This document shows, piece after piece, positions 27,308 to 61,051 of a stretch of 64,000 nucleotides of DNA (positions within the stretch are counted from its first letter, which is position 1; every line of letters begins with the position of its first letter). Where the stretch lies: NCBI GenBank assembly GCA_963169345.1, contig CAUJCT010000019.1, positions 105,366 to 169,365 on the forward strand, read 5' to 3'. The position numbers were made by a program, and so were the translations under genes. This stretch comes from Bacteroidota bacterium (GTDB lineage Bacteria; Bacteroidota; Bacteroidia; NS11-12g; UBA955). A model generated the notes under the pieces. That model saw only the letters and a list, made by a program, of their open reading frames with translations. It was not told the DNA's origin and made no database searches.

Positions 27308-27869
27308 AACCAAACTAAACAAACGATTATTTTGGATTAAATTTCTTTCCTTAATTTACATTACTTTTTCGATTTGTCTGATTTTAGGATTGGAATTAAG
27401 GTTGTCTGAATTTATCCAAGGATTATTGTTTATTCTTGTTTTTAACCTAATTATAAAATCAGTACAATTAAGAAGGTTGATTGAATATCTTTTTTATACA
27501 TACATTGTTTACAATATTACTGAATATATAATTTTAAGATTTTATTTTAAACTGCAACTATTATATATTCTTGAGTTCATTAAATGGTTTCTTTTATCTA
27601 TTCTTGGATTATCTCTTTTTAAAACATCTTTTAAGATTTATGGAATTTCAATATTGCTAAGTTCTATACTACTAGTTGTTGCTCCAATTGTATATGCAAA
27701 TTTAGTTAAAATTGGTTTTGTAGAAATTAATCTAATGTCAAAAAGAATTATTTTTATTTTTCTCGAAGTTGTAATGTTGATTCCTTTTTGCATTTTGATC
27801 TTTCTCTCAAGTTCGCAAAAAAAAGTTGTAAAGTATATTTTAGATGATAATATAAATTTAGATGGTTGA
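27276..27869 (+). CDS. polytopic membrane protein (possible second immunity or accessory protein, could be spurious in AT-rich DNA)
   Basis: 197 aa with ~5 hydrophobic segments. It overlaps the putative immunity gene by 32 nt. Confidence 0.35.
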   Translation: MMKLNTETINKTKLNKRLFWIKFLSLIYITFSICLILGLELRLSEFIQGLLFILVFNLIIKSVQLRRLIEYLFYTYIVYNITEYIILRFYFKLQLLYILEFIKWFLLSILGLSLFKTSFKIYGISILLSSILLVVAPIVYANLVKIGFVEINLMSKRIIFIFLEVVMLIPFCILIFLSSSQKKVVKYILDDNINLDG

Positions 27870-34609: not shown

Positions 34610-34712
34610 CTGAAAGATAATCCTGGCAAGAATTTGAACGATTACTACAAGAAATCAAAGTAGAATATGGAAGCCGAACATTGATGCATTGGGTCATTAT
34701 CTGATAGAACCT

Positions 34713-35573
34713 CTACAATGGTTCACAATTTCTTAGGTTGTATCGAAATTGAAACTCGTGGCAGTATCTAATCAGATGATGTTTTGAAACCCAATGATAG
34801 ACACCTGTTATACCTCGTTTTAGATGACTCCAAAAACCTTCAATGGTTTTTGTGTGAATTTCAGGATTATCAAAATCAACATACTCTTTAGCCCCATTAT
34901 TGATTACATAATGTTCTCTTCCCTTTCGACTGACTCTTCTGTATCCCATGTGGTCATCAGTCATTACTACCGTTCCATCATTAGTATAACTCTTGGCAAA
35001 TGAAGAAAGCCCTTTAACTCTTTTTACTACTACAACCCTTACATTTCCTCCTCTTTCAACAAATCCAACTACTGGGGTCTTGTTTTCACTAACTAGACCA
35101 CGTTTGCTTCTAACATATCTTTTATTCTTCATCTTTCCACCAACATAGGTCTCGTCTACCTCCACAGTTCCACAAAGTTTTTTCTTGAATTCAGGGTTGT
35201 TGAACATAGCTTTCCTGATTCTATGCAACATAAACCAAGCTGTTGGCTGGGTTACATTAATTTCTCGAGCAAGACCATAGAAAGAAATACCTTTCTTTGA
35301 ATTGATAAAGGTTATTATGGCTCTTAGCTATTTTTGTATTGGAATGTGTGAGTTCTCGAATATTGTTCCCTTTAAAACGCTAAACTGCTTTTTACAGACA
35401 CTACACTTGTATCTATTTACAGTCTTTAAGTACCAGAATTTCTCATAACAGCCACAATGAGGACAGTCTTGATGAGTGTTCCAATGGATTTGACCTAGCT
35501 GTTCGGTACATTGTTCTTCAGATAAATTCGAAATCTCATAGAGATTTTTAAAATGAAATGTTGAGTTAATCAT
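34713..35573 (-). pseudogene. IS1595-family transposase interrupted by a single in-frame TAG (at 35328-35330), an IS remnant
   Basis: N-terminal zinc-ribbon part (CPHCGCYEKFWYLKTVNRYKCSVCKKQFSVLKGTIFENSHIPIQK), TAG, then the same frame continues LRAIITFINSKKGISFYGLAREINVTQPTAWFMLHRIRKAMF… through the DDE domain (TIEGFWSHLKRGITGVYHWVSKHHLIRYCHEFQFRYN). The TAG sits where family members have Trp (KW). Confidence 0.75.
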
Positions 35574-36352: not shown

Positions 36353-38587
36353 TTGCCAAAGATTATGAAAAAGCAATTCCTAACATTAGTAATAACTCTT
36401 TTGTTTCACACAATAAATGCTCAAAATTTTGATTGGGGCTTTACACTCGGGACATCTCAAAGTGAGGAAGGTTCAAATGTAACCAGAGATGTAAATGGTA
36501 ATGTTTTTATCACTGGACCTTTATTAGGTACACTTGATTTTAACCCTGGTCCTGGAGTCAATAATTTGAGTCTATCAGGTCCTGCATCAATATTTATCGC
36601 AAAATATAATTCAAAAGGTACTTATCAATGGGCTAAAACATTACCTACAAATAACTATGTCATGGCTAAAGATATTGTTACTGATAAATATGGAAATGTG
36701 TATGTTTTAGGGCAGTCAACAGGTGTTATTGATCTTGACCCTGGTTCTGGAACTGTGCTTGATTCTGGATTTTTGTTTTTTATACTTAAATTGAATAGTT
36801 CAGGTCAATATGTTTCGTCTCATGTTTTTAAAACACAACTTCGTGAATTTAATGTTGACCAACTTTGTATGATTCAATTGGGGAAAAATGATAATATATA
36901 TTGTGTTATGAATTATTATCAGAAGATTGATTTGGACCCTGGTCCTGATTCTTTAATACTTGATTCAAAAGCCTTGAGCACATACGTAGTCAAACTTGAT
37001 TCTTCTGGAAGCTTATTATGGGGAGGGAAAATTACTGGAACAAGCGGTATCAATTATATTAATGGGATTGACTTAGATGATGAAGAAAATTTATATTTAA
37101 CCGGAGCATTTCAAACAACTAAGGATTTCGATCTTTTTGGTGGAAATTTAACAATGACTTCGAACGGTCAGTTGGATGCATTTGTGGTGAAATATAATAA
37201 AGATGGAAATCTTATTCATCGGTATTCCATGGGAACTGGTTTAGGTGATAGGGGACAAGCAATTAAAGTCTCTGGTGCCGACTTATATATAAGTGGAAAT
37301 TATACCGGAGGAGGGATTGATTTCGATCCAAGCTCTAGCAGTAAGTCACCTGGAGCGTCAGGTACAATTAATATGTTTTTATTAAAATGGGATACTGCAT
37401 TCAATTATAAGTGGGTTAAGAAAAATGAAGGGGATGCTCAAAATTTTTTAATAAGATATTTAGATGTTAATAGTTGGGGCAATATTACATTAATCGGAAC
37501 TACAGGTGGTATAAGCGTAGACATGGATTTTGACAGTACGAAATTTGCTTATATAAGTACATTTAAAAATTCTGCTTTTGCTTGTAAATATGATTCAAAA
37601 GGAGCTTTAATTTGGATGTCAAGTTTTACTGGAGGTACTAGTAATTCAGATATCAATGTACGAGATGCCTTTGAGGATAATTGGAATAGATTGAGTATTT
37701 GTGGGAATTTTCCATCAATGATCAATATTAATCCATCGGGGTCGACTTTTATAAATACAAATGGTTTCAAAGACATCTTTTTTACAAATCTTCAAAGTAA
37801 TACAACCTATGATACAGCTATTTCATTTTGTGATAGTGTCATTTCACCTAGCGGAAAGTATGTTTGGCTTAGTAGTGGTAAGTATAGCGATACTATACAA
37901 AATGTCAATGGAGGTGATAGTATATTCAGACCCAATTTGACAAATAGAACTCAGTATATGAGCAGTACTATATCAGTCTGTGGACAGTATAAATCACCTT
38001 CGGGGAAGCTATTTAAACAGTCAGGTACTTATTTTGACACAATACCAAACATATATGGCTGTTTCAATTTCCAGACCATCAACCTTACCGTATTGCCCAT
38101 AAGTTATTCAAGCTTAAAAGCTTCCGCTTGCGAATTATACATTTCACCTAGCGGGCGTTATAAATGGTATTCTGGAGGTATTTATACTGATACATTAAAG
38201 AATTATTTCGGATGCGATAGCGTGATTCTAATTGATCTTTCAATCAATAATCCTCAATACGCTTCTATCAAACAAACAGCATGTGGAACTTATACATCTC
38301 CAAGTGGTAAATATACCTATACCTACTCTTTGGTGTTTAAAGATACAATTTCTACGATTGCGGGATGTGATAGCATACTGACTGTCAATTTGACGATTTT
38401 ACCTACTGATAAAGCTGTAGTGCCCGTAAAGGCTTGTGGAACTTATGTTTCTCCAAGTGGCAAGTATATGTGGAACAATAGCGGCACCTATTTTGATACA
38501 CTTAATAATAGTTTCGGTTGCGACAGTATACTAGAAATCAGGCTTGAAATAAACAATTCAGTTTCATCCGTTCTGAATTTCAGCTAA
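36353..38587 (+). CDS. T9SS cargo adhesin-like protein, N-terminal part (SBBP beta-propeller repeats plus 6-7 Cys-containing ~45-aa modules), terminated by an in-frame TAA
   Basis: Signal peptide. DVNGNVFITG / DKYGNVYVLG / DEENLYLTG SBBP-like repeats. Repeated modules C(G/E)(T/L)Y.SPSGKY…G(C)DSI. The frame continues unbroken after TAA 38585-38587 into the next ORF. Confidence 0.6.
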   Translation: MPKIMKKQFLTLVITLLFHTINAQNFDWGFTLGTSQSEEGSNVTRDVNGNVFITGPLLGTLDFNPGPGVNNLSLSGPASIFIAKYNSKGTYQWAKTLPTNNYVMAKDIVTDKYGNVYVLGQSTGVIDLDPGSGTVLDSGFLFFILKLNSSGQYVSSHVFKTQLREFNVDQLCMIQLGKNDNIYCVMNYYQKIDLDPGPDSLILDSKALSTYVVKLDSSGSLLWGGKITGTSGINYINGIDLDDEENLYLTGAFQTTKDFDLFGGNLTMTSNGQLDAFVVKYNKDGNLIHRYSMGTGLGDRGQAIKVSGADLYISGNYTGGGIDFDPSSSSKSPGASGTINMFLLKWDTAFNYKWVKKNEGDAQNFLIRYLDVNSWGNITLIGTTGGISVDMDFDSTKFAYISTFKNSAFACKYDSKGALIWMSSFTGGTSNSDINVRDAFEDNWNRLSICGNFPSMININPSGSTFINTNGFKDIFFTNLQSNTTYDTAISFCDSVISPSGKYVWLSSGKYSDTIQNVNGGDSIFRPNLTNRTQYMSSTISVCGQYKSPSGKLFKQSGTYFDTIPNIYGCFNFQTINLTVLPISYSSLKASACELYISPSGRYKWYSGGIYTDTLKNYFGCDSVILIDLSINNPQYASIKQTACGTYTSPSGKYTYTYSLVFKDTISTIAGCDSILTVNLTILPTDKAVVPVKACGTYVSPSGKYMWNNSGTYFDTLNNSFGCDSILEIRLEINNSVSSVLNFS

Positions 38588-38701
38588 TGTTACGGAGAAA
38601 GTGTCATAGTCGGGAGCAAGTCATACTTCAAGCCGGGCAAATTTCTTGATACCCTTATTACTTTTAACGGATGTGACAGCTTTGTAGAGATTAATATTAA
38701 T

Positions 38702-39181
38702 GTGGCACCGCAAATCGATGTGAACATTGTCAAGGAAGGCAGAATTTTGAGAGCTGTCAAAGGATATGATAGTTATCAATGGCTGAAATGTTACAATGGG
38801 CAATATGCCTTGTTAAATGGCTTTAGCGAAGATTCTTTAAATGCGCCTGAATCTGGTCATTATGCTGTAGAGATTAGGCAGGCTACATGTATGGATAGCT
38901 CTATTTGTATAGAAGTCTTCGAGACCAATATATCAGACTTGAATATCAAGACAGTTCATTTTTACCCTAATCCAGCTGAATCCTTCGTTCATATTGAATC
39001 GGACAGAGTGATTGTGGGCGTTGAACTTATAGCTGCGGATGGTAGACGTTACGTGGTTGAAGTAATTCCAGGAATGTTACTTAATATAGAACTTGGAGAA
39101 TTTGAATCTGGGATTTACACTTTGGTGTTGCGATTGTCTGACAAAGAATTCATCATGAGACAACTTAGTGTTCTTAGGTAA
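38702..39181 (+). CDS. C-terminal continuation of the preceding gene carrying the T9SS C-terminal sorting domain (same reading frame, separated only by one TAA)
   Basis: 38588-38701 in the same frame encodes another repeat module (CYGESVIVGSKSYFKPGKFLDTLITFNGCDSFVEINI). The C-terminus VHFYPNPAESFVHIESDRV…GIYTLVLRLSDKEFIMRQLSVLR is a T9SS CTD. Confidence 0.55.
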   Translation: MAPQIDVNIVKEGRILRAVKGYDSYQWLKCYNGQYALLNGFSEDSLNAPESGHYAVEIRQATCMDSSICIEVFETNISDLNIKTVHFYPNPAESFVHIESDRVIVGVELIAADGRRYVVEVIPGMLLNIELGEFESGIYTLVLRLSDKEFIMRQLSVLR

Positions 39182-42103
39182 TCATCTTAAGAGTGTTATG
39201 CTCACCTTCTGACTCTGTATGCCTCCTCGTTTTGGGATGATGAAGATGACGCATATATAAACTCCCTGCTCGCAATCTTCACCTTTATAGGTGCCGTCCC
39301 AGCCCTGGTTGACGTCCTCGCTGTAAAATACTCTCTCACCCCAGCGGTTGTATATCTCCATACGGTATTTGTTCACGAATGGAGTGACTTGTGGCTTGTA
39401 TACATCATTGACTCCATTGCCATCCGGTGAGAAGCAATCTGGAATTAACAGTCTTATTTCAGTGTAAAGTGTGCCAGTTTGCTTTATGGCAGTATCCTTG
39501 CACCCTTCGGAATTGGTAACGACCAAAGTAATCATTCTACTGTTGGTATCCTCGAAACCTATCGTCGGACTTTTCTCGGAACTTTCGGAAACTTGGTCAA
39601 ATATCCATTTCCATTGTTTGACCCCTACGCTAGAAAGGTCGTTCATCTGGAATTCTGCCGTGTTGAACTTGGTGTCAGGTAACCGGATATAACTGAAATT
39701 GGCTTCTGGTTTTGGATAAACTACGACTTGTTGATCCGTCGTATCCTTGCATCCAAAACTGTCTGTGACTATAAGTCTGACATTGTACTTGCCCTGACTT
39801 CCAAATTGATGAGATACTTGTTCGTTGGTTTCGAATCCCCCATCGTTAAAATCCCAATAAAAACTGTTATTACTTTTTGTTCCGAATGAACTGGAACTCT
39901 CAAGTCGAATTCTCTCTGGGAAACAGACCGTGTCCGAGCCAAACCTAGCAACAGGAGGTTCAAGAACGCGCAATGGTAATTGAGCAGTATCCTTGCATCC
40001 GTTTTCAGATTCTGTTTTTAATTTTATCAGGTAATCTCCAAAATTGGAGTAGCTGTAATTTAGGTTGTTGGATGTGAAGTTCTTGCCATCTCCAGTTTGC
40101 CAGTCAAATCCCAATAGATTAACTGTTGAGTCTAAAATGGAGACTTTTAAATTAAACAGATTTCCTTCCAGGCATTGTGTGTCCTTTAGTGGGTTGATGA
40201 TTTTGGTAACACCATACTTTTCAAGTAAAATGTCTTTTGATACCGTGTCCTTGCATCCAAATTTATTTGAAACGATTAATTTGAATATATGTTTGCCAAA
40301 TTCCTTGGTTATCCAATCATTGATTCCTTCAGCATTTCCAATTGAATCAGTATCATAATACCAAGTATAGTCCACCGAATCATAAGCTTTGATGGTCTGG
40401 TCTGTAAGGTTGAAGCTGTTTGAATTTTGACATTGTGCACTGTCATTTATAGAGAATCTGGCAATCGGGTGCCTTAAGACTGCGATTTCCTTTTCTGTCG
40501 TGTCGGTACATGAGTGTTTCGAAAGTGCAATAAGCTTTACAGTGTAATCACCATAAGACAAATATCTATGTGTTGGGGATTTAGCGGTATCTTCTTGCAG
40601 GTCGCCAAAGTCCCACCGATAATTTAAATTTCCTGTTGATATTGTGGATGTATTCAGATAGTCAAATTGGTTGCCTTTGTAACATTGCGAATCTTTGTTT
40701 GTTTGAAAGAAAGCTACTGGATGCTCAGCAACCAGCACAGATTTCGAAATCGTGTCGTAACAATTGGTCAGGTATGAGTAGGCAATCAGTTGAACATTTT
40801 TGATGCCTGTATTTGAATAGTTGATGGTCTTTGTTGTCAATCCGATAGATGAATCTCCATTGCCATAATCCCAATAGTAGCTGAGCGTGTTCATCGCGCT
40901 GAACGTTGTCGCACTCGTAAAATCAAAGGAATTGCCGTTGAAGCACTGAATAGTGTCATTAATTGTAAACTGGGATATTGGTCGTTCAAGAAGACTGATA
41001 GGATGACTAGCTGAATCTCGACATCCATTTTCAGTTTCAACAACGTACCAAAGTGTATAATTATCGGATTTGTTAGGGTAGAATTTTGATGCGGGTTTGA
41101 AGGCTGTATCCTGAGTTCCATCCCCGAATTTCCATGTGCTCGACAATTTGCCGTATTTGAGTTTGGAGTTGTTTAGGATTTTAAATTCATTCTTTTGCCA
41201 GCATTGTGAATCGTTTGGTATGGTGAAATCTATGACAGGAAAAGCAAAAGTTATGGCAGGCTGAATTAAAGTATCTGAACAGCCGTTATCCGCCCAAGAT
41301 ACAAGCCTTACAGAAAAAGTATCCTCCGTTATAAACGAATGTGAAAACAAATTGGCTGTAGATGCAAACCCATCAGATAATTTCCAGTCAAGAAATAGGA
41401 TTGAATCATCGGTTGTCTCTGTCCTATCAATAAAATTGAACAGATTCTCTTTGAAACATTGCTTGTCTTTGTCGATGTCGAAGTTTGCTTTGGGGTTGGC
41501 TTTTATCATCACTGAATGATAAAAGGTGTCTTTGCATCCATTTGTGTTCTCAGTTTGGAGCCTTATCGATTTTTTACCAGAACTTGGGAATTTCAAATTT
41601 TCAATAGATAATGAAGTATCCGATACAAAGGTATCCAAATGCCAATGGAAACTTGACAGATTAGTGCCAGATAATCGGTTGGCCTGTATAGTGAAGTTGT
41701 TTTCATTCAGACATTGCGTGTCCTTGTTGATTGACAAGTTGAGTTCAGAATTCTCAAACACTTTGACTATTCTATCAGAAGTATCTGGACAACCGAAAAA
41801 ACTCTTGGTTATGAGTCTGATTTTAAATGTTCCCGAATCCTTGTATTGTTTAGTGCAAATCGTATCATTAGAGTTCGTTCCATCGCTAAAGTCCCAGCTT
41901 ACCATCCCTTTTTGGTCACCTAAAACTCTGCTAGTGTCAACGAGATAAAAAGCGCTTGTCCTTTGGCACATCACGGTATCTGAAATTGTAAATCCCGCAT
42001 ATACTTTAGGTTGCAACACAACGATGGTATCCTTGCCGACACAATTGGCGCTATCTGTAGCTTTCAGAATGTATTGTCCGGGCTTGTTGACAAAAATATT
42101 CAC
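39182..42103 (-). CDS. PKD-repeat surface protein with gliding-motility/T9SS type-B C-terminal domain, the C-terminal part of a split gene
   Basis: About 10 PKD-like ~85-aa modules (…GCKDT/GCSDT/GCRDS…). C-terminal CFSPDGNGVNDVYKP…YNRWGERVFYSEDVNQGWDGTYKG…GVYICVIF. It has no signal peptide of its own and begins at GTG directly after the upstream ORF's TAA in the same frame. Confidence 0.6.
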   Translation of the reverse strand: MNIFVNKPGQYILKATDSANCVGKDTIVVLQPKVYAGFTISDTVMCQRTSAFYLVDTSRVLGDQKGMVSWDFSDGTNSNDTICTKQYKDSGTFKIRLITKSFFGCPDTSDRIVKVFENSELNLSINKDTQCLNENNFTIQANRLSGTNLSSFHWHLDTFVSDTSLSIENLKFPSSGKKSIRLQTENTNGCKDTFYHSVMIKANPKANFDIDKDKQCFKENLFNFIDRTETTDDSILFLDWKLSDGFASTANLFSHSFITEDTFSVRLVSWADNGCSDTLIQPAITFAFPVIDFTIPNDSQCWQKNEFKILNNSKLKYGKLSSTWKFGDGTQDTAFKPASKFYPNKSDNYTLWYVVETENGCRDSASHPISLLERPISQFTINDTIQCFNGNSFDFTSATTFSAMNTLSYYWDYGNGDSSIGLTTKTINYSNTGIKNVQLIAYSYLTNCYDTISKSVLVAEHPVAFFQTNKDSQCYKGNQFDYLNTSTISTGNLNYRWDFGDLQEDTAKSPTHRYLSYGDYTVKLIALSKHSCTDTTEKEIAVLRHPIARFSINDSAQCQNSNSFNLTDQTIKAYDSVDYTWYYDTDSIGNAEGINDWITKEFGKHIFKLIVSNKFGCKDTVSKDILLEKYGVTKIINPLKDTQCLEGNLFNLKVSILDSTVNLLGFDWQTGDGKNFTSNNLNYSYSNFGDYLIKLKTESENGCKDTAQLPLRVLEPPVARFGSDTVCFPERIRLESSSSFGTKSNNSFYWDFNDGGFETNEQVSHQFGSQGKYNVRLIVTDSFGCKDTTDQQVVVYPKPEANFSYIRLPDTKFNTAEFQMNDLSSVGVKQWKWIFDQVSESSEKSPTIGFEDTNSRMITLVVTNSEGCKDTAIKQTGTLYTEIRLLIPDCFSPDGNGVNDVYKPQVTPFVNKYRMEIYNRWGERVFYSEDVNQGWDGTYKGEDCEQGVYICVIFIIPKRGGIQSQKVSITLLR

Positions 42104-43621
42104 TTAAGACTGACCAGTACTCCATTCATGTTTAGCAAAAGGCTTTCCTGGTCGCAAGATTAGAAAAATCTGATTGCAAAATGCTGTATCATTTCCCAAT
42201 ATTGGCTTTGGATCTTTAATTTCAATTTTCTTAACAAATGAGTCCTTGTATCCTGAATAAAAAAAGTAAGCCTTTACAGTATAATAACCAGCCTTAGTAT
42301 AGATATGCGTGGCACCATACTTGTTTTTTGATGAATTAAGAATTCCAGAAATGGTATCACCAAAATCCCAAACTGTTGAGTCTAGGTTCTCAGTTTTTGA
42401 CAAGGTAAATTGCGTTGTGTCGTTGTTGCAATTGCGCCAATAGTTAAAGATTCGTTTAATGAAAAAAGACTGAGTGAATGCTGGCAGTCCGAGCTGGGTC
42501 TTACCCTTGGCTAAGGTAATTTGACTCCTTACAAAGTTTACATTGGCAGCATTAGTATCCGGTTTGTTGATGCATGACAAGTATGTCACAATGAACTGGG
42601 ACATATAAATTTTATTATCTGGACCGAGCTGAAGACTTCCAAAAGTGCCGTTTATTACGCTATCAATTACAACCCTAGAATTTCTAAATGCGGTGCTAGA
42701 AGTGGCCAGCGCATTATATTGAACTAGCTTCGCCTGTCCATGATCCGTCAAGTACAAGTATTTACCATTCGGAGAAAACTCGGCACCGTAACCATATCGA
42801 AATGGGAATTTCCAAACATTACTGACTTGGCCTGTAGCGCTATTGAAATTACCAATTACTGCTGTATCCTTGTTGTAGTTCACTGCAACGAACTTTTTGC
42901 CGTTTCCCGAAACCTTTAAGGCTCCTATCATCGAATAACCACCGTTGATATAAAGTCCAGTCCTAGAGTATACTGGCGTAGTGTTTACACCCAATGAATT
43001 CACTTTGTATGCCGCTATGGAATCAGATTTGTATTTGTATGCAAGTATCCAAAATTCCCTACCGTTAGCATGACTAACGGCAGTCAGTTTCTCACAAACA
43101 GGCGTCAAAAGTTTCGTGTTTTTGGAACTCACAACAACATCACCTCTCCCAGAATCCAATCTCATATCAACGATACTGTATGTCATACCGTCATCACGCC
43201 CAAGATCCTGAACACAAAATATGAAATACAGGCTTGGACTATCAGGATATGGCACGATGATGGCGGATTGAGTAGAAGAAGCATTTCCTAATAAGTCGTA
43301 TCCATTAGGCATTTTCTTATGAATGCTGTCATACACATTTACACCGTCTGTATAAAAAAGCAATCTGCCAGTGCCAGTGCTTATTGAGGCACAACCTTCA
43401 TAAGTTTTCATGGCGCTGTTTGTCATGGAGGTAAGAGTCCCAGAATTGAAACTTATTGCCCCATATTCGCCAAAATACCAATTGTTGGCCTCTTTTTGAG
43501 CTTGTAAATTCACAGCGAATGCTAAAGCTAAAAAAAACACAAAATACTTTGAATAGCCAAACTCACACTTCTTATTATCAAGTGATTGAATTAACAATTG
43601 TATTTTCCATAAACACCGCAT
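42104..43621 (-). CDS. N-terminal part (signal peptide plus beta-rich domain) of the same split T9SS protein
   Basis: 505-aa ORF with a signal peptide (KYFVFFLALAFAVNLQAQ). Its stop TAA (42104-42106) abuts the GTG of the downstream ORF in frame. Confidence 0.6.
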   Translation of the reverse strand: MRCLWKIQLLIQSLDNKKCEFGYSKYFVFFLALAFAVNLQAQKEANNWYFGEYGAISFNSGTLTSMTNSAMKTYEGCASISTGTGRLLFYTDGVNVYDSIHKKMPNGYDLLGNASSTQSAIIVPYPDSPSLYFIFCVQDLGRDDGMTYSIVDMRLDSGRGDVVVSSKNTKLLTPVCEKLTAVSHANGREFWILAYKYKSDSIAAYKVNSLGVNTTPVYSRTGLYINGGYSMIGALKVSGNGKKFVAVNYNKDTAVIGNFNSATGQVSNVWKFPFRYGYGAEFSPNGKYLYLTDHGQAKLVQYNALATSSTAFRNSRVVIDSVINGTFGSLQLGPDNKIYMSQFIVTYLSCINKPDTNAANVNFVRSQITLAKGKTQLGLPAFTQSFFIKRIFNYWRNCNNDTTQFTLSKTENLDSTVWDFGDTISGILNSSKNKYGATHIYTKAGYYTVKAYFFYSGYKDSFVKKIEIKDPKPILGNDTAFCNQIFLILRPGKPFAKHEWSTGQS

Positions 43622-43775: not shown

Positions 43776-46700
43776 TTATTTAAATTGCGTTTTATCTATT
43801 GCAATAATGCATGAAGATATCATTTCATCAAGTGTATTTGAAAATTGACAGTTCTCAATTAGCCATTCAATTTGCTTACTTGATATTGTGACGTTTTTGT
43901 GCGAAAGGTCTTTAAGTGTGTAAATTTTTCTAACTCTTGATTTTTGGCCTTTTAATTTATCTAATTCTGGTATAAGTATTTCTAGCCAAAGATCTGCGAA
44001 TTGATCTAAGTCGACATAAAGATCATCTTCAGTTTCAGGATTAAATAAATTTAATAATTTTTCGGCATTTAATTTGTCTTTCCCTGAGAGTGAATTAACT
44101 TTTAAATTGTGATTTAATATATTTTCTCCTTGATTTAATGCTCTTCTTTTTTTCCATGGCAACAATTGCTTCTCTTGACTTCGTAGTTTTCTAATTATGT
44201 CCTTTAGCTTTTGTGAAGTATCAATTTCTTTCCAATTTCGTTGAACAATGGTTGTTTTTGACAAGTATGATTTAAGTAAATAAGTAATGTCAGAAAAATC
44301 TGTGTAACCTTTGTTATTTTCATCAATCAATAACCATTTTGGACTTTTTCGGGTACTTCCTCTAAAGGAAAAGAAACACCAATTTTTGTCGGTTTCAATA
44401 AAACTGATAGCTGTCTTAACGGTTGAATCAACATCTTTGTAAAGATCATAAATAGCATGGTCTATTAGTGCGCTTTCCCCTTCTATAAGGCCATATAAAT
44501 CTTGTGTGCTATCCCTTACGCCTTCCCATTCATAATCACTACTTGAATATTCTGTGTAAGCTTCAATAATATTTTGAGTACTCAAACTATTTTTGAGATA
44601 TTTCTCATAAATGACTTTAGGTATTCCTACATTGTTTCCAATTAAATCTTCTGTAAGCAATAAAGTGTCTATTATCCTTCTGTCGCCGTTTAAGGAGAAT
44701 TCTTCAGAATCATTTGGCCACATTACTGTAATTTCATTATGTTCGCAATCCATCCTTTCAATACGGCCAATACGCTGTTCAATAACCCTAAGTACGCTTG
44801 GCATGTCTAGTAAGATAAGACAGCTGGAATCTTGAAGATTAATCCCTTCAGACATAGCATCAGAACAAAAAGCAATCAACTTTTCTTTTGAATGATTTTC
44901 TAGTGAAAACAGCTTCATTACTTCGGTTCTGTCTTTGCTGTTATGTCCTGCTGCAACAATGGTTTTAAATTGGGGATTTCTTTCTTGAAGTAACTTGTTT
45001 AAGTAATCAAGTGTGATTACTGTTGAATCAAAAGCTAATATCTTGTTATGCTCTTCTAAAGCCTTAATAATGGTATCGATCTTACTAATTTCTCGATTTT
45101 TACTTAATTGATTTACAAGTCTTCCAATTTTTTCATATATTTCAATCTCTTTGTCACATGTAGTTTTATACAATGTCTCATCATATAACCAATGATAACT
45201 TTCTTGTAAAAGTCTTTTATCTATAAACATTTTAGGCACTATGTTTTTAAGTTTTTTTACCTTTCCAATCATATCACCTGATAAGTTTTTAGTAGAGTTT
45301 AGTCCAAATTCTTGATTAGCGGCATTTGTCCCATATAAGTATTCATGAATGGCACATTGGGAAGATCTCAATTTTACCCTAACCATATAGGCTGCTAATG
45401 CTGTTGCTGAAGTAAACCTTTGGTTAATATAATTAACCATTTCTTCATCTCCTTTAATAAAATTTGGGATTTTGATTCTTTGCAAATAATGAATTCCTTT
45501 CAATTTGGATGTCAATGTTGAAATTTGCATCCCAATTTTTTTGTCAGAGACTGTCTCATTAGTTTCATAAACGATTGAATTTGTTTTCGGGTACTTACAA
45601 ATATGCCCTAACCTATTAGTATATAATTTTGGAGATCGTTCAATCATTTTATTCAGTTCTTTTTTCGTTCGACGAACTATAAACTGATTCACATATTTTT
45701 TAAGTTGCTCAAGGTGCTGTTTGTTAATGCCCTTTTTTCTTTTCTTCCTTAACTCAAAATAAGTTTTTAAATCGTCGTCACTAAGGTTATCAATATCAAG
45801 AAGTTCAATTAATCTCAAAATATCATCTATTTTTTTATTGATGGGGGTTGCGGTTGACAAAATTACATTACATGAACCTTTTGGAATAATTGCTTTACTT
45901 CTTTTAGAATGAGGATGAAGGTAATTATGAGCTTCATCAATAACCAATATATCAGAACTATGGATAGCCTTTTGGATATTCCTTTGATTTTTATCCAAGC
46001 CAAGACTTAATTTCCCCATTGATTCAATTTTATTATAAAGCACAAAATGTTCCTGTTCTCTTTCCCAATTTTCAATAACAGTTTTAGGACAAATTATTAA
46101 CGCATTTGAACGATCCTTTCTACCATTTTCCCATAGCCAATGAAACAATGTATAAGCAAGAGCCGTAGCAAATTTAGTTTTCCCACTTCCTGTTGGGTCA
46201 GCTATTAGTACTCGTCCTTGATCTTGGATAATTTTCATTGCTCGCGCTATTCCCATTTTTTGAGAAGGCCACAATTTATGGGTTATTAAAGCTTGATAAA
46301 GAACAGGATAATCTTTCATCCATTTGCTTTCTAAAATTTCAGAAATCGCTCTGGCTAAAGCCTCTTGCCAGGTTGCTTCTTTGAATAATTTACTAAATAA
46401 TTCAATCAGGTGGTAGTTATAATCATCGGATATAGTATAATAATATTCAGCTATTCGTTTAATATCTGAATATTGCTCTTTTTCCTTTTTAGACGAAGAA
46501 CTTTGAATTCTAATGTTTGCTTCTGTTTGTAAAATAGTTCCTGATTTGCTAAAATTGGATGAACCCAATATGGCTGTTTCGTCACCTATATATATTTTTG
46601 CATGGAGTTTATCCCTTACTTTAAATTCTATACAATTATTATTGATTTTCTCAATAATATTAAGAACAGAACCACATAGTTTTAAACTAACATTTTGCTT

Positions 46701-47009
46701 TACCCAATAATTTTTTATCTCGGTTGGAAGTGAATAGTGAGGAAGTCGAGCGCTCACTCTCTCATCAGGATCAAAGCCTATTACAATTCGAAGCTTTTTT
46801 AACTTTGGATAATCATTAACTCCAAAAACATCTATTAAATTGGATAAGGAAGTAAATCCTGTAAGTATTAAATAATTCTCTGAATTTTGAATGTCCTTTA
46901 AAAGCAAATCTTTGACTCTTCGATCTTGTTCCTTAAGATTTAAAGGAAAATCTTCTTGATTTGGCAAGTCAAGTTTATAGTTAAAGTCGAATAGATTAGG
47001 TGTTTTCAT
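43776..47009 (-). CDS. PLD-family (HKD) nuclease domain fused to an SF2 (DEAH-type) helicase with ~320-aa C-terminal unknown domain, a candidate single-protein defence gene
   Basis: HKD motif HAKIYIGDETAILGSSNFS (res ~136-154). Helicase motif I LIADPTGSGKT, Ia LIICPKT, II VIDEAHNY, III ILSTATP, V FCSDAMSEGINLQ, VI QRIGRIER. Confidence 0.85.
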   Translation of the reverse strand: MKTPNLFDFNYKLDLPNQEDFPLNLKEQDRRVKDLLLKDIQNSENYLILTGFTSLSNLIDVFGVNDYPKLKKLRIVIGFDPDERVSARLPHYSLPTEIKNYWVKQNVSLKLCGSVLNIIEKINNNCIEFKVRDKLHAKIYIGDETAILGSSNFSKSGTILQTEANIRIQSSSSKKEKEQYSDIKRIAEYYYTISDDYNYHLIELFSKLFKEATWQEALARAISEILESKWMKDYPVLYQALITHKLWPSQKMGIARAMKIIQDQGRVLIADPTGSGKTKFATALAYTLFHWLWENGRKDRSNALIICPKTVIENWEREQEHFVLYNKIESMGKLSLGLDKNQRNIQKAIHSSDILVIDEAHNYLHPHSKRSKAIIPKGSCNVILSTATPINKKIDDILRLIELLDIDNLSDDDLKTYFELRKKRKKGINKQHLEQLKKYVNQFIVRRTKKELNKMIERSPKLYTNRLGHICKYPKTNSIVYETNETVSDKKIGMQISTLTSKLKGIHYLQRIKIPNFIKGDEEMVNYINQRFTSATALAAYMVRVKLRSSQCAIHEYLYGTNAANQEFGLNSTKNLSGDMIGKVKKLKNIVPKMFIDKRLLQESYHWLYDETLYKTTCDKEIEIYEKIGRLVNQLSKNREISKIDTIIKALEEHNKILAFDSTVITLDYLNKLLQERNPQFKTIVAAGHNSKDRTEVMKLFSLENHSKEKLIAFCSDAMSEGINLQDSSCLILLDMPSVLRVIEQRIGRIERMDCEHNEITVMWPNDSEEFSLNGDRRIIDTLLLTEDLIGNNVGIPKVIYEKYLKNSLSTQNIIEAYTEYSSSDYEWEGVRDSTQDLYGLIEGESALIDHAIYDLYKDVDSTVKTAISFIETDKNWCFFSFRGSTRKSPKWLLIDENNKGYTDFSDITYLLKSYLSKTTIVQRNWKEIDTSQKLKDIIRKLRSQEKQLLPWKKRRALNQGENILNHNLKVNSLSGKDKLNAEKLLNLFNPETEDDLYVDLDQFADLWLEILIPELDKLKGQKSRVRKIYTLKDLSHKNVTISSKQIEWLIENCQFSNTLDEMISSCIIAIDKTQFK

Positions 47010-47209
47010 TTATAAAAATTAATTTAATTGTGTTGTCTCCTTCACTGAGGATAGAGATCAAACAAAAATAATCTATAAATTAAATAAAAATATGGTTGAG
47101 TTTTCAGTGGGATTTGAGATGATTTGAGAATAAATTAAAATAACTGATCCTTATAGTATAGTTCTCATATTTTGTTTCAAACTATAAAAGATGAATACTA
47201 TTCAAAAAT

Positions 47210-47476
47210 TTAAAAAGACTTTCGCTTGTATTTGTCAATAAAAAGCTTGACGGACTTACTGTTGTATAGAATCAATTTTCTTACCGGTTGAGAAAATTCA
47301 ATCTCTCCTTGGTTTCTTAACTTTTGGATGGTAGACTTGCTTTTTATATTTAAGATAGACATTAGTTCTTTTTCAGTTATCCATTCTTTTTCTATCTTCA
47401 AATTTTCTTTGACTTTAAATATTATTTCATCGATTAATTTATAGAATGCTTCTGTTTCAATTATAATGACTTCCAT
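47210..47476 (-). CDS. excisionase/AlpA-like helix-turn-helix DNA-binding protein (mobile-element regulator)
   Basis: 88 aa. C-terminal …ITEKELMSILNIKSKSTIQKLRNQGEIEF… resembles Bacteroidota Xis-type HTH proteins. It lies upstream of and co-oriented with the PLD-helicase. Confidence 0.65.
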   Translation of the reverse strand: MEVIIIETEAFYKLIDEIIFKVKENLKIEKEWITEKELMSILNIKSKSTIQKLRNQGEIEFSQPVRKLILYNSKSVKLFIDKYKRKSF

Positions 47477-47536
47477 ATAAATGCAAAGTTATATCTAAAA
47501 TGACAAAAAAACAACTTAAGTTGCAGATAATTAGGT

Positions 47537-47558
47537 AGTTATTTTCAAAAATAACAAA
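47537..47558. promoter_or_regulatory. second copy of AGTTATTTTCAAAAATAACAAA palindrome-containing element
   Basis: Identical 22-mer to 1749-1770. Located ~60 bp upstream of the HTH gene start in the divergent region with 47890(+). Confidence 0.4.
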
Positions 47559-47639
47559 CTAATTTATTGTATTATTATATCAATAAATTGGTAAATAAAT
47601 ACTATTTTAGTGATATAGAAGAGTTTATCAAATTTTCTT

Positions 47640-47661
47640 AGTTATTTTTAAAAATAACAAC
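47640..47661. promoter_or_regulatory. third, 1-mismatch copy (AGTTATTTTTAAAAATAACAAC), still a perfect 18-bp palindrome
   Basis: Located 110 bp from the previous copy in the same intergenic region. Confidence 0.35.
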
Positions 47662-47889
47662 GGTCATTAATCAACATTTTTCGAATTTATCCACTTTGAA
47701 AAGTTGGGATTGATTTTTGAATAATTAATTTAGAAAATATCGTAGTTTAAATCAACGATTCTAAGAATTATTCAAAAGCTATATAATTACAGATTTCTTA
47801 GACATAAATAAACGGCTTTTCTGAAATTACTTTTTTCTAAAATTTTTTGTAATTTAGCAGAGAATTACATTAAATCAGATTAAACAACT

Positions 47890-48432
47890 ATGACAAAAAA
47901 AGAAATAGAACAATGGATTATAGTCTTGAATGACCTCTTAATATTGACAGAAAATGAATTGAGCATGCAGGAAGATTTCAACTCTTACACATCTAGTAAG
48001 ATTAGCAATCTTCAGAGTGAGCTGAATGCAAACGAAGCTGCATTAAACAAAACATCCAATGATCCAACCCAGCAAGCTACTATTAAACACAATTTTGTTA
48101 ATTCTTTAAATGATCTTTCCAGAAGAATTAATGAGTTGCGTTATAAACCTATGCCACCATTTCAAATTGAAAAAGAATTTCGCCACTTTCATCAGACAAA
48201 CTTCAATTTCATAAAGCCAATTATGGCTCAAGTACCTTTTAGTTACAGTATTACACCAGACCCTCAGAACATTTACGGGAAAATACATAGAACTTGGGCA
48301 ATTAAGAATGTTTCAGAACTAAATGAATTTCTTAATTTAATAAATGACAAATTCGAAAGAGACATTAAACAATTAGATATGACTGAAATTGAGGGTGTTT
48401 CTCCAGTCTACTTTGTAATACATAGCAACTAA
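47890..48432 (+). CDS. hypothetical protein (island cargo)
   Basis: 180-aa ORF, no recognisable motifs. Confidence 0.5.
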   Translation: MTKKEIEQWIIVLNDLLILTENELSMQEDFNSYTSSKISNLQSELNANEAALNKTSNDPTQQATIKHNFVNSLNDLSRRINELRYKPMPPFQIEKEFRHFHQTNFNFIKPIMAQVPFSYSITPDPQNIYGKIHRTWAIKNVSELNEFLNLINDKFERDIKQLDMTEIEGVSPVYFVIHSN

Positions 48433-48652
48433 TTATATTGCATGAAAAGTAAAATTACATCCCAGTAAAATAAATCAAATCAGAAAATGCTAATAAAGGA
48501 ACTAATGGTGTAAATAGACAATATTCACAAGTTCACGGCAATAGAGGCATGCAACTCAACCCTAATCAGTCTAATAAGCAATAAACTTTGTCTTACTTTT
48601 TATAGAACAGACACATTCCCTTTTTGGGTTTAAGGAGGAAAATAATTTAAGT

Positions 48653-49615
48653 ATGCAGTTCATTTTTGACACAAATTATTATCGAGGTATTGTATTTGGA
48701 AAGGAATTGCTAGATATTCAAAAAAAGCTTTTTGAGCAAAAGGATAGGGAGCGTCTAAAAGGACATGAAATTCTATTTCCTAATATTGTCGCCATTGAAT
48801 TAATTAGCCATTTAAAGAGCGGTGATAATGCCCTTAGAGTATGTTATACTGCTCTACACTTTCTGGCTAATCATTGTAATAGAAACGGGGCGAATAAATT
48901 CAAAGGAACTTATATGCCAACTTATGAGGACCTAATTTCATTTTATTTCTTTCAAACTCCATCTGATCAATTTGGTATAGTTAATCGAAATTTAAATAAA
49001 TATGCTAATGACATTGGAGGGGTTTATAATATTGCAAATACTTTTGATTATAGGGATGTCATTAAGGAAATATCAGAATTTAAGAAATTTGGTATAAACA
49101 ATTTGATCTCAAATATTGAAAAGCACTATTTACCTGCGATACATCCTAATAAAATTTCAGATAAAGATATTTTCAATAAAAATGCAGAAGTGAAGGAGGA
49201 GTTTGAGCGGGCGTATAAAGTTGGAGATTATCATAAATGGTGGGGGTTGGTTTTTCTATCAATGGCAATGCAAGATAAAAAAATTGAGAAAATCAAACTC
49301 ACAAAGGAAGAGTTTCAACATGGCTTTTTGAATGATTTCAAGGTGTCAATTGATTTCTTTGTCAATCATGTTTGGCGTAAAGTTGCGGACACCAAAAAAG
49401 TAGAGTATTTTTATTCTCCTGAGACCGATGGAAAAAAAAGGTGGAATAGTTATTATGATATGCAGCTAATCTTTGCCACTGAATTTGAAAATTATAAGAA
49501 TCGTAATACAATCTTAGTAACAACTGAAAGAAAGATACAGGAGGCTTTTGCAAAAATGGGAAAAGAAAATCTTGTAATTAGTCCAGGCGAGTACCAAGAA
49601 TTGTTGGAAAAATAA
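48653..49615 (+). CDS. hypothetical protein with PIN-like N-terminus (weak)
   Basis: 320 aa. It starts MQFIFDTNYY… (the D-T-N pattern of PIN domains), with E in IVAIELISHL. Confidence 0.45.
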   Translation: MQFIFDTNYYRGIVFGKELLDIQKKLFEQKDRERLKGHEILFPNIVAIELISHLKSGDNALRVCYTALHFLANHCNRNGANKFKGTYMPTYEDLISFYFFQTPSDQFGIVNRNLNKYANDIGGVYNIANTFDYRDVIKEISEFKKFGINNLISNIEKHYLPAIHPNKISDKDIFNKNAEVKEEFERAYKVGDYHKWWGLVFLSMAMQDKKIEKIKLTKEEFQHGFLNDFKVSIDFFVNHVWRKVADTKKVEYFYSPETDGKKRWNSYYDMQLIFATEFENYKNRNTILVTTERKIQEAFAKMGKENLVISPGEYQELLEK

Positions 49616-50099
49616 AGAAAGTAGCAAAGTTAGGCGACTAGCCCAACCCAGGCATATAGAGCTTAAAAGCGTTAGGCATAAACACAAGCAATTCATAAGC
49701 ACACTTTTATTCTGATTCCTTTATGACTTTTTTGCAGCGACACCCTGAAAAATGGCTTTATTTTTAATTTTTCCTGTTTTGTTTTTTCTTTTGCAAAATT
49801 ACCATTTGCAGACTTAGGAAGTTTTCTAATGAAATAAAATCTTCGGCTATTGATAAAGTTTAATATTTGGATGCGTCTCGTTCGGTCAGGTTTCTGCATT
49901 ATTGTTTACCTATGCTTATATTGTCATTAGCTGTGTTTTGAATTTGTTGCTCAATAAAGTTATCATTATCACATGCAAGTCAACTGACAACCTTGGAATC
50001 TAGAATTGAGGAACGAAAAAATGAGTAAAGCTCATATTATGCCACTATCAAAGTAAGTTATAGGAATTCTCAGAAATTAAATCTCAACAAATGCTGACT

Positions 50100-50394
50100 C
50101 GAAGTATATTTTACCAAGCCAAAATGCAAATCGAATACCAATTAGTAATTATGCCATTTTTACGCACTTTATCGTATGGGATATAAGGGAAAGACTACTA
50201 GACATAGTTTCAGAGCCTTTGCAATATCTAACATCAAAGAAAAGCATTGTTCCCGCCACGAGGTTGTTGACCGACAATTAGCCCATGCTCATAGAAACTG
50301 TGTTAATGCTGCTTATGACAGGTCGCAATTTCTAGATGAGGAAGGTAATGATGTAAGAATGGGCAGATTACATAGACAAGATGAAATAATTTAA
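50100..50394 (+). pseudogene. decayed C-terminal fragment of a P4-type tyrosine integrase (frameshifted)
   Basis: One frame (from 50108) gives ILPSQNANRIPISNYAIFTHF. The ORF at 50176-50394 in another frame gives TRHSFRAFAISN…VDRQLAHAHRNCVNAAYDRSQFLDEEGNDVRM, matching the conserved integrase C-terminus (HGFR…QLAHA..N.VRAAYNRA.YL.ER). The catalytic N-terminal portion is absent. Confidence 0.55.
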
Positions 50395-50454
50395 CTTGAA
50401 AGCTTATTATTGTTAAATTTGAAAATAGTTATTTAGTTTAAGGAAATAATTGAT

Positions 50455-51075
50455 ATGGAAAAACTACTTGCAAGAATAAATAGCGCAAATAATCCTATAA
50501 TTGTTCCTGTTAATATAGAAAAATATTCAACACCGAATAATTGTTTTTACAATGTAATGAAGAAAGTAGCGTTGGATGGTGGCCATATTGTTTATGGATG
50601 GAAAATACATCATGGTAAATTGCTTGATGAGGCGGAAAGGCACGCAGTATGGAGGTCTCCTAATGGGGAGTTAATAGATATATCGCCATTCAATTCGAAT
50701 GGAAAAATTACATTTATAGAGGAAGATATGGGTTGGAAATACAGAGGACAATTTGAGGATAACATTCGAGTTAATATTACAGACAATCCATTAGTTGATG
50801 ACTTAATTTTATTGTGTGAGACAATTACAAAGCTCTGGCAAACGAGTTCAAGAAAGTCATCCCAAGAGATTTCCATTCATGTATTAATAAAGAAGCAAAT
50901 TGATGTACTTGAAGCAAACAAAATTAAGTTCGAATTTTTTGCTTTGAAAAACCAAGATCGTGAGTGCCTTTGTTTCTGTGGTAGTTCCTTAAAGTATAAA
51001 AAGTGCCATGTTTTTAATGAAGAAACTCAGCGAGAAATCCTTGGTTGGGCTAATAATGTCCTTAAAGAAGTTTAA
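50455..51075 (+). CDS. hypothetical protein with C-terminal SEC-C-like metal-binding motif
   Basis: 206 aa ending …CLCFCGSSLKYKKCH… (compare SEC-C CPCGSGKKYKKCC). Confidence 0.5.
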   Translation: MEKLLARINSANNPIIVPVNIEKYSTPNNCFYNVMKKVALDGGHIVYGWKIHHGKLLDEAERHAVWRSPNGELIDISPFNSNGKITFIEEDMGWKYRGQFEDNIRVNITDNPLVDDLILLCETITKLWQTSSRKSSQEISIHVLIKKQIDVLEANKIKFEFFALKNQDRECLCFCGSSLKYKKCHVFNEETQREILGWANNVLKEV

Positions 51076-51116
51076 ATAATAATAAAAAATATATTACAGC
51101 ATAATTTATACTTTAG

Positions 51117-52340
51117 TTACCTCAAACTCCCAAACACTTTGTCTGAGGCTTCGTCCACAGCCTCGTCTCTAATACTCGAAAGGTAAATTTGGGTAGTTTT
51201 AATATCGCTGTGCCCTAACATTTTACTAACTACTGAAATATCTATACCGGAGTCTCTGGCTAATGATGCAAATGAATGACGAATGGTATTGGTTGACATA
51301 TATTCAAAATCAATCCCAAGATGAGTCGCCAATTTCTTTAAATCTCTGTTATAATTTCTGATAGCCCCTCTCGAAATAGAATATGCCCTCTCTAAGCTCA
51401 TATCTTTATTTAGGAATGGTAAAATGTAATCTTCACTAGTTTTGTCCTCTGAAAAATGTTTAATAAGCGTTTCAAGTGGCTCCGAAATGCCGACATTATA
51501 CAACTTAGCCGTTTTTCGCCGATTATAGTAAATTCTATCATTTGTAATATCCTTGAGTTTTAGAAAACATATATCGGTGAAGCTCGCTCCTCTCATATAA
51601 AATGAGAACAGGAACACCAATCTAGTGCGCTCCATTGTTTTGTTAGTCAGTTTAGCTGACTTGATCTTTTCCAAAGCCTCCTTTGGCAAAGCTCTTTTAG
51701 CGGTATCTTGTCTTCTTACCTGATATTGGTCGAATGGATAGGCATCTTTGGGAAGTATTTTGTCAGAAATTGCTCTGTTCACCAATGCCCTCAATGCTCT
51801 AAGTTTTACCCCCAAACCATTTACACTATTACCTTTGGCTAGATACTTTTGTTCCATCTTTTTAATCCAAAAAGGAGTGATGTGTTCTAAGGGAATATCA
51901 GCAGTGCCATTGTAATTAATTACCCACTGCAGAAAGTCGTTGTATGCTTTTGCATTCCCGAACCTTCCTGCACCCTTCATTTCTTCAATAACAGTCTTTG
52001 TGTATTCAGCTATGCTGACGGCAATTGATTCATTCAAAATTCTAGTTTTAATCTCAGAAATCCCCATTCTTTTTATATCTCCAGATTCATCTAAGGCAGA
52101 CAATATGCTAAAAGCCTCAGCACTTCTGGTTTTTATCTTGGCATTTTCAGCCCCAATATTCTTGATTTTTTTACAGGTAGAGCGTATAGTTTGGCTGCTT
52201 TCATTCCATTCGCTTGGTTCTAATGTAACTCCCAAAGGAATTGAGGTACTTTTACGGTTTGCTATTATTCGCAGTATTAAAGGATAACCGTCCCTTTTTC
52301 TGTTTCTTTCATCTAAAATAACCCTGACACTATAAGACAT
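51117..52340 (-). CDS. site-specific tyrosine recombinase (Bacteroidota phage-integrase family)
   Basis: 407 aa. C-terminal catalytic region …RHSFASLARDSGIDISVVSKMLGHSDIKTTQIYLS… (R…HxxR…Y). Confidence 0.85.
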   Translation of the reverse strand: MSYSVRVILDERNRKRDGYPLILRIIANRKSTSIPLGVTLEPSEWNESSQTIRSTCKKIKNIGAENAKIKTRSAEAFSILSALDESGDIKRMGISEIKTRILNESIAVSIAEYTKTVIEEMKGAGRFGNAKAYNDFLQWVINYNGTADIPLEHITPFWIKKMEQKYLAKGNSVNGLGVKLRALRALVNRAISDKILPKDAYPFDQYQVRRQDTAKRALPKEALEKIKSAKLTNKTMERTRLVFLFSFYMRGASFTDICFLKLKDITNDRIYYNRRKTAKLYNVGISEPLETLIKHFSEDKTSEDYILPFLNKDMSLERAYSISRGAIRNYNRDLKKLATHLGIDFEYMSTNTIRHSFASLARDSGIDISVVSKMLGHSDIKTTQIYLSSIRDEAVDEASDKVFGSLR

Positions 52341-59879: not shown

Positions 59880-59895
59880 CTTATTTATTGTTTAT

Positions 59896-60803: not shown

Positions 60804-60814
60804 TGTTGTTTAAA

Positions 60815-61036
60815 TTAAGGTTGAATGAGTTCTATTTGATATCCCAGTGATTGTATGGTGTCTTCTATACTGTCTGTATTAGCTGAAACACTAACAACGG
60901 TGAGGATTTTGTCGGCATGGTTGGTGTCCACTTCCCACCTTTCAATATCCTTTAAATTGTCCATTCCAGATTGTATGCTTCTGACACAGCCACTGCATTT
61001 GATATTTGTTTTGAATTTATAAATGTTGTTTGACAT
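60815..61036 (-). CDS. heavy-metal-associated (HMA) domain copper chaperone, CopZ-like
   Basis: 73 aa, …FKTNIKCSGCVRSIQSGM… (metal-binding CxxC in HMA fold context). Confidence 0.65.
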   Translation of the reverse strand: MSNNIYKFKTNIKCSGCVRSIQSGMDNLKDIERWEVDTNHADKILTVVSVSANTDSIEDTIQSLGYQIELIQP

Positions 61037-61051
61037 ATTGATAAAATTATT

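Follow-up and report, generated by a model that had tools for sequence, protein, structure and literature searches.

A premature in-frame TAA divides a T9SS type-B cargo gene of a Bacteroidota bacterium: probably a null allele that arose recently at a degenerating locus

Introduction

SprB-type surface proteins are the studied examples of Bacteroidota T9SS cargo that carries a type-B C-terminal sorting domain (CTD). In-frame stop codons belong to a different group of known systems when they are recoded; stops of that kind are conserved or numerous within a gene, and dedicated tRNAs or RNA elements accompany them. To our knowledge, the codon that is recoded in bacteria and phages is TGA or TAG, not TAA. 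With regard to export, part of a published account states that a T9SS substrate requires a Sec signal peptide as well as a CTD (PMC12618676). In Flavobacterium, gliding and T9SS-related genes are documented to acquire loss-of-function mutations in response to phage, as described in parts of two reports (PMC9804748; bioRxiv 10.1101/2020.10.02.323337).

Here we describe a cargo gene of this kind that is divided by one TAA codon into two open reading frames. It lies in a 64-kb stretch of DNA of a Bacteroidota bacterium, the whole of which was analysed and is termed the window; all coordinates refer to it. The reading that we favor, with a probability of about 0.8, is that the divided gene is a recent null allele, produced by a single C-to-A nonsense change in one ancestral T9SS cargo gene at a degenerating locus.

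Results

One reading frame interrupted by a single TAA

The mechanical ORF list of the window contains two minus-strand ORFs, ORF 42104-43621 (ATG...TAA, 505 aa) and ORF 39182-42103 (GTG...TGA, 973 aa), which share a common frame with zero bases between them, the GTG following directly after the TAA. The minus strand across the site reads ...GAA TGG AGT ACT GGT CAG TCT TAA GTG AAT ATT TTT GTC.... The divided gene comprises the following parts:

42107..43621, minus strand: 5' gene fragment of 505 codons, with a signal peptide, an N-terminal domain, one PKD domain and the first half of a junction module
42104..42106, minus strand: premature in-frame TAA, codon 506 of an ancestral gene of ~1,479 codons, placed by codon alignment with L081
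39182..42103, minus strand: 3' gene remainder of 973 codons plus TGA, with the second half of the junction module, a PKD array and a type-B CTD
42008..42211, minus strand: ~68-residue inter-PKD junction module, cut in two by the stop and defined from homologue alignments

Single ORFs run gapless over the junction in more than 15 homologues. A search with the joined sequence revealed P0001, a full-length single protein of 56% identity over 95% coverage (67% aa identity to the 505-aa fragment), and P0007-P0011, single proteins of 1,462-1,488 aa that share 38-43% identity over 98% coverage. Of 20 homologous loci examined in GTDB species genomes, 14 form one continuous ORF; at the remaining six, PKD matches belonging to several genes had been joined. 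The homologues derive from Bacteroidia and Chitinophagaceae MAGs, many of them from lakes, and are annotated by JGI or NCBI as gliding motility-associated-like, PKD-domain or T9SS type B sorting domain proteins. The closest orthologue, P0243 (JGI contig L081), was found in the cluster that contains the 505-aa ORF at 90% identity, the first homology search not having listed the closest relatives. It has 1,440 aa, its N-terminus being cut by the contig end, and shares with the window 87% aa identity upstream of the stop and 73% downstream.

Codon alignment places CAA TTT TCA GTG AAT ATC of L081 against CAG TCT TAA GTG AAT ATT of the window. The stop thus represents a single C-to-A change, because L081 has the Ser codon TCA, one step from TAA, and the same GTG (Val) follows in both sequences. 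In six other homologues the aligned column holds Ser, Lys, Lys, Thr, Thr and Thr, so that the in-frame stop is lineage-specific, with a sense codon at the site in all orthologues compared. A pattern of 21 + NNN + 18 bases around the stop gave 0 matches in GTDB genome contigs and 0 in JGI metagenome contigs, and thus revealed no near-identical strain that has a different codon there.

The stop falls inside the junction module, which has the consensus PKPxLGxDTxxC...Y.W......V.K.G.Y....D..xC...DTI.V..P. Its invariant residues are P, G, D, C, Y and W before the stop, and G, Y, D, C, D-T and P after it. The module matched no Pfam family, even at E=10. In an AlphaFold2 model of the junction segment, built from a 7-sequence alignment, the flanking PKD domains are well predicted and the junction module has a pLDDT of <50. 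The same-frame adjacency of the two ORFs is not due to chance, because the full-length homologues show no gap there and the stop interrupts a conserved module. The initial annotation, which had joined the abutting ORFs into one reading frame and regarded the ~1,479-aa product as the natural unit, holds on both points, since P0243/L081, P0001/L003 and P0007-P0011 (1,462-1,488 aa) are uninterrupted. It had also let the GTG open the downstream ORF; this codon corresponds to a conserved internal Val codon and does not point to a start.

Two export signals on separate ORFs

The N-terminus of the 505-aa ORF is signal-peptide-like, the highest mean hydropathy over 15 residues (KD 2.08) falling at residues 27-41, and the far end of the 973-aa ORF carries a sorting domain:

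43499..43621, minus strand: predicted Sec signal peptide, residues 1-41, with the hydrophobic core YFVFFLALAFAV and then LQA|QKEAN, from hydropathy and motif
39206..39445, minus strand: T9SS type-B C-terminal sorting domain (CHU_C / TIGR04131), residues 887-966 of the 973-aa ORF, from PF13585 and TIGR04131

The ...AQKEAN motif after the hydrophobic stretch is conserved in P0007-P0011 and L003, and the true start codon of the 505-aa ORF may lie downstream of the annotated ATG. The ORF then consists of a ~350-aa N-terminal domain, which matched no Pfam family, followed by one PKD domain at residues 398-451. The 973-aa ORF has six PKD_4 matches in the Pfam search. Its CTD scores 53.5 bits with PF13585 (E=2.6e-14; cut-off 27) and 42.8 bits with TIGR04131 (curated cut-off 35), and the first 100 residues of the ORF contain no comparable hydrophobic stretch, with a hydropathy maximum of 1.19. 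These values bear out the earlier description of a protein that has no signal peptide yet ends in a type-B CTD. They also agree with the claim that the 973-aa piece alone could not reach the T9SS, given that it has no predicted signal peptide and that both signals are needed under the rule quoted in part from PMC12618676. Sec signal peptide and CTD stand on one polypeptide in the reconstructed ancestor and the orthologues, whereas here the TAA lies between them.

Three other ORFs of the window carry a CTD (30450-32153, 55655-57265 and 36365-39181), which would imply that the host possesses a T9SS. No T9SS machinery gene was seen within the 64-kb window, and no PorP/SprF-like partner gene among the window ORFs of at least 100 aa.

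The stop in the assemblies and the genetic code

The TAA at 42104 is contained in the Logan per-run assemblies of four runs (ERR10643333, -34, -35 and -37), which are 100% identical to the window. Parts of the locus occur, with 0 mismatches, in the Logan assemblies of seven runs (ERR10643333, -34, -35, -37, -39, -40 and -41); the stop at 42104 is covered in four of them, and two further premature stops, at 38585 and 35328, in seven and two, respectively. A 203,218-bp NCBI contig is recorded as carrying the same split proteins, and TAA is the consensus in every sampled assembly of the strain. An assembly artefact is ruled out by this identity between the per-run assemblies and the NCBI contig, in agreement with the view that the stop at 42104 is genuine. 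An altered code in which TAA is a sense codon was likewise rejected: TAA is the main terminator, as 24 of the window's 36 large ORFs end in it, and the ~17,000 codons of the large ORFs contain just two in-frame TAAs. Moreover, conserved C-termini end at TAA or TAG just where their homologues end. A sequencing or assembly error, or a code with TAA as sense, thus has a negligible probability, as the assemblies are identical at the site and TAA is the dominant terminator; the in-frame stop itself is all that speaks for it.

The agreement of the assemblies bears also on the proposal that the TAA is a strain-level variant in a segregating population, in which cells with TCA lie below the consensus threshold of the assembler and maintain the function. 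All contigs come from a single run series, ERR10643333-41, so that one population was sampled, and the mutation appears to be very young, both of which fit such a polymorphism. Against it, the four per-run assemblies have the same base and show no alternative contig, at a level at which minor alleles may escape notice, and a collection of 15 billion proteins holds no protein of at least 90% identity with an intact junction except the more distant P0243. We consider this proposal improbable.

Constraint on either side of the stop

Comparison of the window with L081 gave a pS of about 0.77, at which synonymous sites are saturated, and a pN of 0.07 upstream and 0.17 downstream of the stop. This saturation makes dN/dS against L081 unusable, and relative-rate counts were used instead. 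With P0001 as the outgroup, lineage-specific aa changes upstream of the stop number 14 in the window and 15 in L081 (p=1.0), and downstream 45 and 49 (p=0.76); the picture did not change when P0001 served as the sister sequence and five more distant sequences as outgroups. Family-invariant columns are kept in the window at 82 of 85 positions upstream and 165 of 171 downstream, within the leave-one-out range of the intact homologues. No further stop or frameshift was found in the 973 downstream codons. By a rough estimate, neutral divergence of more than ~1% would have left ~25 extra aa changes and one or more extra stops.

The 973-codon part thus appears to have been under normal purifying selection for essentially all the time since the split from L081. 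Neither relaxed constraint nor extra lesions, by which a pseudogene is recognized, were observed past the stop, which is compatible only with a very young pseudogene. Given that there is no decay downstream, the mutation would be very young or else tolerated, two possibilities that sequence alone has no power to separate. The second of these corresponds to functional read-through or suppression, in which UAA (and UAG) is decoded usefully, for example by an ochre-type suppressor tRNA whose gene lies on a phage or in another part of the genome. This would yield some full-length exportable protein from the split gene, and likewise from its neighbour and a nearby transposase gene. A translated and selected region past the stop would look the same as the region observed, and the presence of the allele as the consensus in every sampled assembly also fits. 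By contrast, the stop is not conserved, with TCA in L081 and Ser, Lys or Thr in other homologues, and TAA serves as the terminator of 24 of 36 large ORFs, also at conserved C-termini. The neighboring genes and the surroundings of the stop, described below, bear on the same question.

Premature stops in three adjacent genes

The split gene is followed by two other genes with in-frame stops:

36365..39181, plus strand: convergent SBBP-repeat gene with a type-A CTD, split by an in-frame TAA at 38585-38587
34650..35573 (about), minus strand: IS1595-family transposase gene, with in-frame TAGs at 35328-35330 and 34713-34715 and no frameshift

The stop codon of the SBBP-repeat gene touches that of the split gene, with zero bases between them; in L081, a convergent Por_Secre_tail gene adjoins with the same zero gap. 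The homologue of the SBBP-repeat gene in L003 is an intact 938-aa ORF, with 51% identity over the entire length and a Pro where the window has the stop, and further full-length homologues exist. The in-frame TAA at 38585, where the initial annotation had pointed out the same pattern, is real, and the gene that it breaks has an intact counterpart in a relative. A weak hint of faster evolution after the 38585 stop was seen in the window lineage. In the transposase gene, the first TAG (35328) aligns with Trp in 120 of 120 homologues, and the second lies near the C-terminus, with homologous sequence going on past it. A third cargo gene, 30450-32153, is intact and shares 63% identity with its L003 counterpart. 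At 7100 and 26465, the same-frame neighbours each have a start of their own and are separate genes; as candidates for further splits, they and the pair at 59892 were judged to be ordinary separate genes or alternative-frame noise.

Altogether, the four premature stops all fall within about 9 kb, in three adjacent genes of the roughly 45. Each of them is TAA or TAG, and the lesions include neither a TGA nor a frameshift. Rough estimates put the chance of finding no TGA at about 0.33 and that of finding no frameshift at about 0.03-0.1, so that this spectrum is only mildly unlikely. It is the spectrum that an ochre-type suppressor would tolerate, and thereby counts for read-through. The confinement of the stops to three adjacent genes argues against a genome-wide decoding peculiarity, since the other ~40 genes have none, and the transposase TAG at an invariant Trp is unlikely to be restored by an ochre suppressor. 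From its position, the cluster points to a local cause, for instance relaxed or negative selection on a functional pair of cargo genes together with a dead IS.

Search for recoding signals

No tRNA gene, including a suppressor tRNA, and no Rfam match was found in the 64-kb window. Folding of the 126 nt that begin at the stop is poorer than that of shuffled sequences (z = +1.73), which gives no indication of a stimulatory RNA structure. The premature stops at 42104, 38585 and 35328 have no common context (TCT TAA GTG, AGC TAA TGT and AAA TAG CTA). TAAG is the rarest natural TAA context in the window (1 of 21), for which we claim no status as a strong terminator in this host.

Several other routes around the stop were considered and rejected. 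Bypass by frameshifting disagrees with the homology, which stays in frame 0, and the +1 and -1 frames meet a TGA at once. A diversity-generating retroelement or templated mutagenesis was discarded, as no repeat pair lies near the site and no reverse transcriptase was found among the ORFs scanned. Phase variation was discarded as well, with no repeat or homopolymer at the TAA site.

A full-length protein made by reading through the TAA, which the initial annotation had implied, is not supported, given the TCA in L081, the use of TAA as the main terminator, and a window with no suppressor tRNA, Rfam element, stimulatory structure or common stop context. Functional read-through or suppression of the stop is, in our assessment, quite improbable. 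A more specific version holds that the strain decodes these stops usefully, through an ochre-type suppressor with the anticodon UUA, which reads UAA and UAG, or by other means, and that the split cargo genes and the transposase thereby stay partly functional. This version would explain the restriction of the stops to TAA and TAG, the absence of frameshifts and the undecayed 973 codons, and we regard it as highly improbable.

Discussion

The divided gene is most likely a young, ordinary loss-of-function allele, not a recoding signal. The ancestral cargo would have had ~1,479 residues and consisted of a Sec signal peptide, an N-terminal domain, a PKD array and a type-B C-terminal sorting domain. 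In the window lineage, a C-to-A change would have turned the Ser codon TCA at codon 506 into TAA. Translation would then stop at the TAA and release a 505-residue fragment that crosses the inner membrane and, having no CTD, could not be passed on by the T9SS. The 973 codons would either stay untranslated or be reached by a restart at the GTG, giving a cytoplasmic product that has no signal peptide and whose CTD would be unusable. As the two export signals lie on separate ORFs, we infer that the allele is a functional null, a pseudogene in the making. The absence of decay downstream suggests that the mutation is very recent relative to the split from the nearest known relative.

A neighbourhood with three stop-bearing genes would fit relaxed selection or selection for the loss of surface proteins. 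By analogy with Flavobacterium, phage selection could plausibly lie behind the breakage of the two adjacent cargo genes and behind the allele having become the consensus.

For annotation, the 505-aa and 973-aa entries, which are now deposited apart, should be replaced by a single entry that is marked as a disrupted gene, and the 973-aa ORF should not be taken as a T9SS substrate that dispenses with a signal peptide. For biology, the locus would represent the loss of two adjacent T9SS surface-protein genes, caught in the act in a clonal environmental population, which could be followed in the ERR10643333-41 series. Otherwise, the split gene is an ordinary nonsense allele of a kind already known. 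It would gain greater importance only if read-through were demonstrated; natural UAA suppression that sustains split T9SS cargo genes would, if true, be new.

Comparison with known systems

Like other T9SS cargo with a type-B CTD, the reconstructed 1,479-aa protein combines a signal peptide, PKD repeats and a type-B CTD above the cut-offs. However, signal peptide and CTD are here placed on different ORFs by the premature TAA. The locus differs further in that no PorP/SprF-like partner was seen among the window ORFs of at least 100 aa, and in a ~350-aa N-terminal domain and a junction module that match no Pfam family.

The comparison with programmed read-through or recoding, as in recoded phages or the insertion of selenocysteine and pyrrolysine, yields a single likeness, namely an in-frame stop within a coding sequence. 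Unlike those systems, no conservation or multiplicity of the stop, no tRNA and no RNA element was found at the split gene or in the window. An easily reversible switch is a poor match as well, since the TAA lies outside any repeat or homopolymer.

The mutations selected by phage in Flavobacterium are similar in that point mutations knock out surface or secretion genes of Bacteroidota, as far as parts of the two reports describe them (PMC9804748; bioRxiv 10.1101/2020.10.02.323337), but nothing in the window ties the split protein to a phage. Pseudogenes that carry a single nonsense mutation resemble the locus in several respects: intact orthologues exist, a single base separates the stop, which falls inside a conserved module, from the sense codon of the orthologue, two export signals needed on one chain have been separated, and adjoining genes are also disrupted. 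They differ from the split gene in secondary decay, of which it shows none, so that it would represent a very early stage, with the loss of function deduced from its sequence.

Arrangement of the two convergent cargo genes

The split type-B-CTD gene on the minus strand converges on a second T9SS cargo gene, itself split, and the two open reading frames end back to back:

36365-39181, plus strand: SBBP-repeat gene with a T9SS type-A CTD, split by an in-frame TAA (38585-38587)
39179-39181, plus strand: TAA, stop codon of the SBBP-repeat gene
39182-39184, minus strand: TGA, stop codon of the split type-B-CTD gene, abutting the preceding stop

No intergenic base separates the two stop codons (39179-39184), which leaves no space for terminators between the genes. 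The identical zero-gap layout is found at 4353/4354 of L081, the JGI contig that carries the closest orthologue of the split gene; in L003, the contig of a more distant relative, the two cargo genes are co-directional and separated by a 163-nt spacer. The L003 homologue of the SBBP-repeat gene is an unbroken protein of 938 aa, with a proline where the window has the TAA at 38585-38587. Past this codon, the sequence comparison weakly hints at quicker evolution in the window lineage, for instance in unique changes (19 vs 5, with one outgroup).

Homologues of the split gene

The called start of P0001, the L003 homologue of the split gene, is an internal ATG, and the frame remains open further 5' (L003 1-700). 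This open stretch encodes a signal-peptide-like segment and the conserved AQKEANNWYFGEY motif without any in-frame ATG; therefore, translation probably begins at a codon other than ATG, and the deposited protein is truncated at its N-terminus.

When the joined 1,479-aa protein served as query, the word-indexed homology search missed the closest relatives, P0242 and P0243 (the latter being the L081 orthologue), as well as P0244, the window's own 973-aa ORF, all of which were recovered only by exact-sequence cluster look-up. Absence from the results of this search is thus no evidence against the existence of a close orthologue.

In-frame stops in the IS1595 transposase gene

TAG interrupts the reading frame of an IS1595-family transposase gene at two places; the gene is free of frameshifts:

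34650-35573, minus strand: IS1595-family transposase gene
35328-35330: first TAG, at a position occupied by Trp in 120/120 homologues
34713-34715: second TAG, ~22 codons short of the usual C-terminus, with homologous sequence continuing beyond it

Amino-acid changes in this transposase are not in excess in the window lineage (20 vs 32, 15 vs 17).

Other neighbouring loci

7115-14293, plus strand: giant ORF (2,392 aa) starting with a signal peptide, no Pfam match
15131-26467, plus strand: giant ORF (3,778 aa) with RHS-repeat and DUF6443 matches
57639-63900, minus strand: copper-handling cluster of a multicopper oxidase (746 aa), a TRASH-like ORF, a DUF3347 ORF and a heavy-metal P-type ATPase (805 aa)
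47210-47476: HTH_17 excisionase-like ORF
51117-52340: Bacteroidota-type tyrosine integrase
within 43776-52340: SNF2/PLD-domain helicase (1,077 aa)

Every gene of the copper-handling cluster appears intact. Each giant ORF is followed by small family-less ORFs (14296-15150 and 26474-27869) that could be immunity-type genes. The whole arrangement resembles a polymorphic-toxin locus. The region 43776-52340 adjoins the split gene directly upstream. With its helicase, excisionase-like ORF and integrase, it may represent an integrated mobile or defence element, the helicase showing sub-threshold similarity to the DpdE/DrmD defence helicases.
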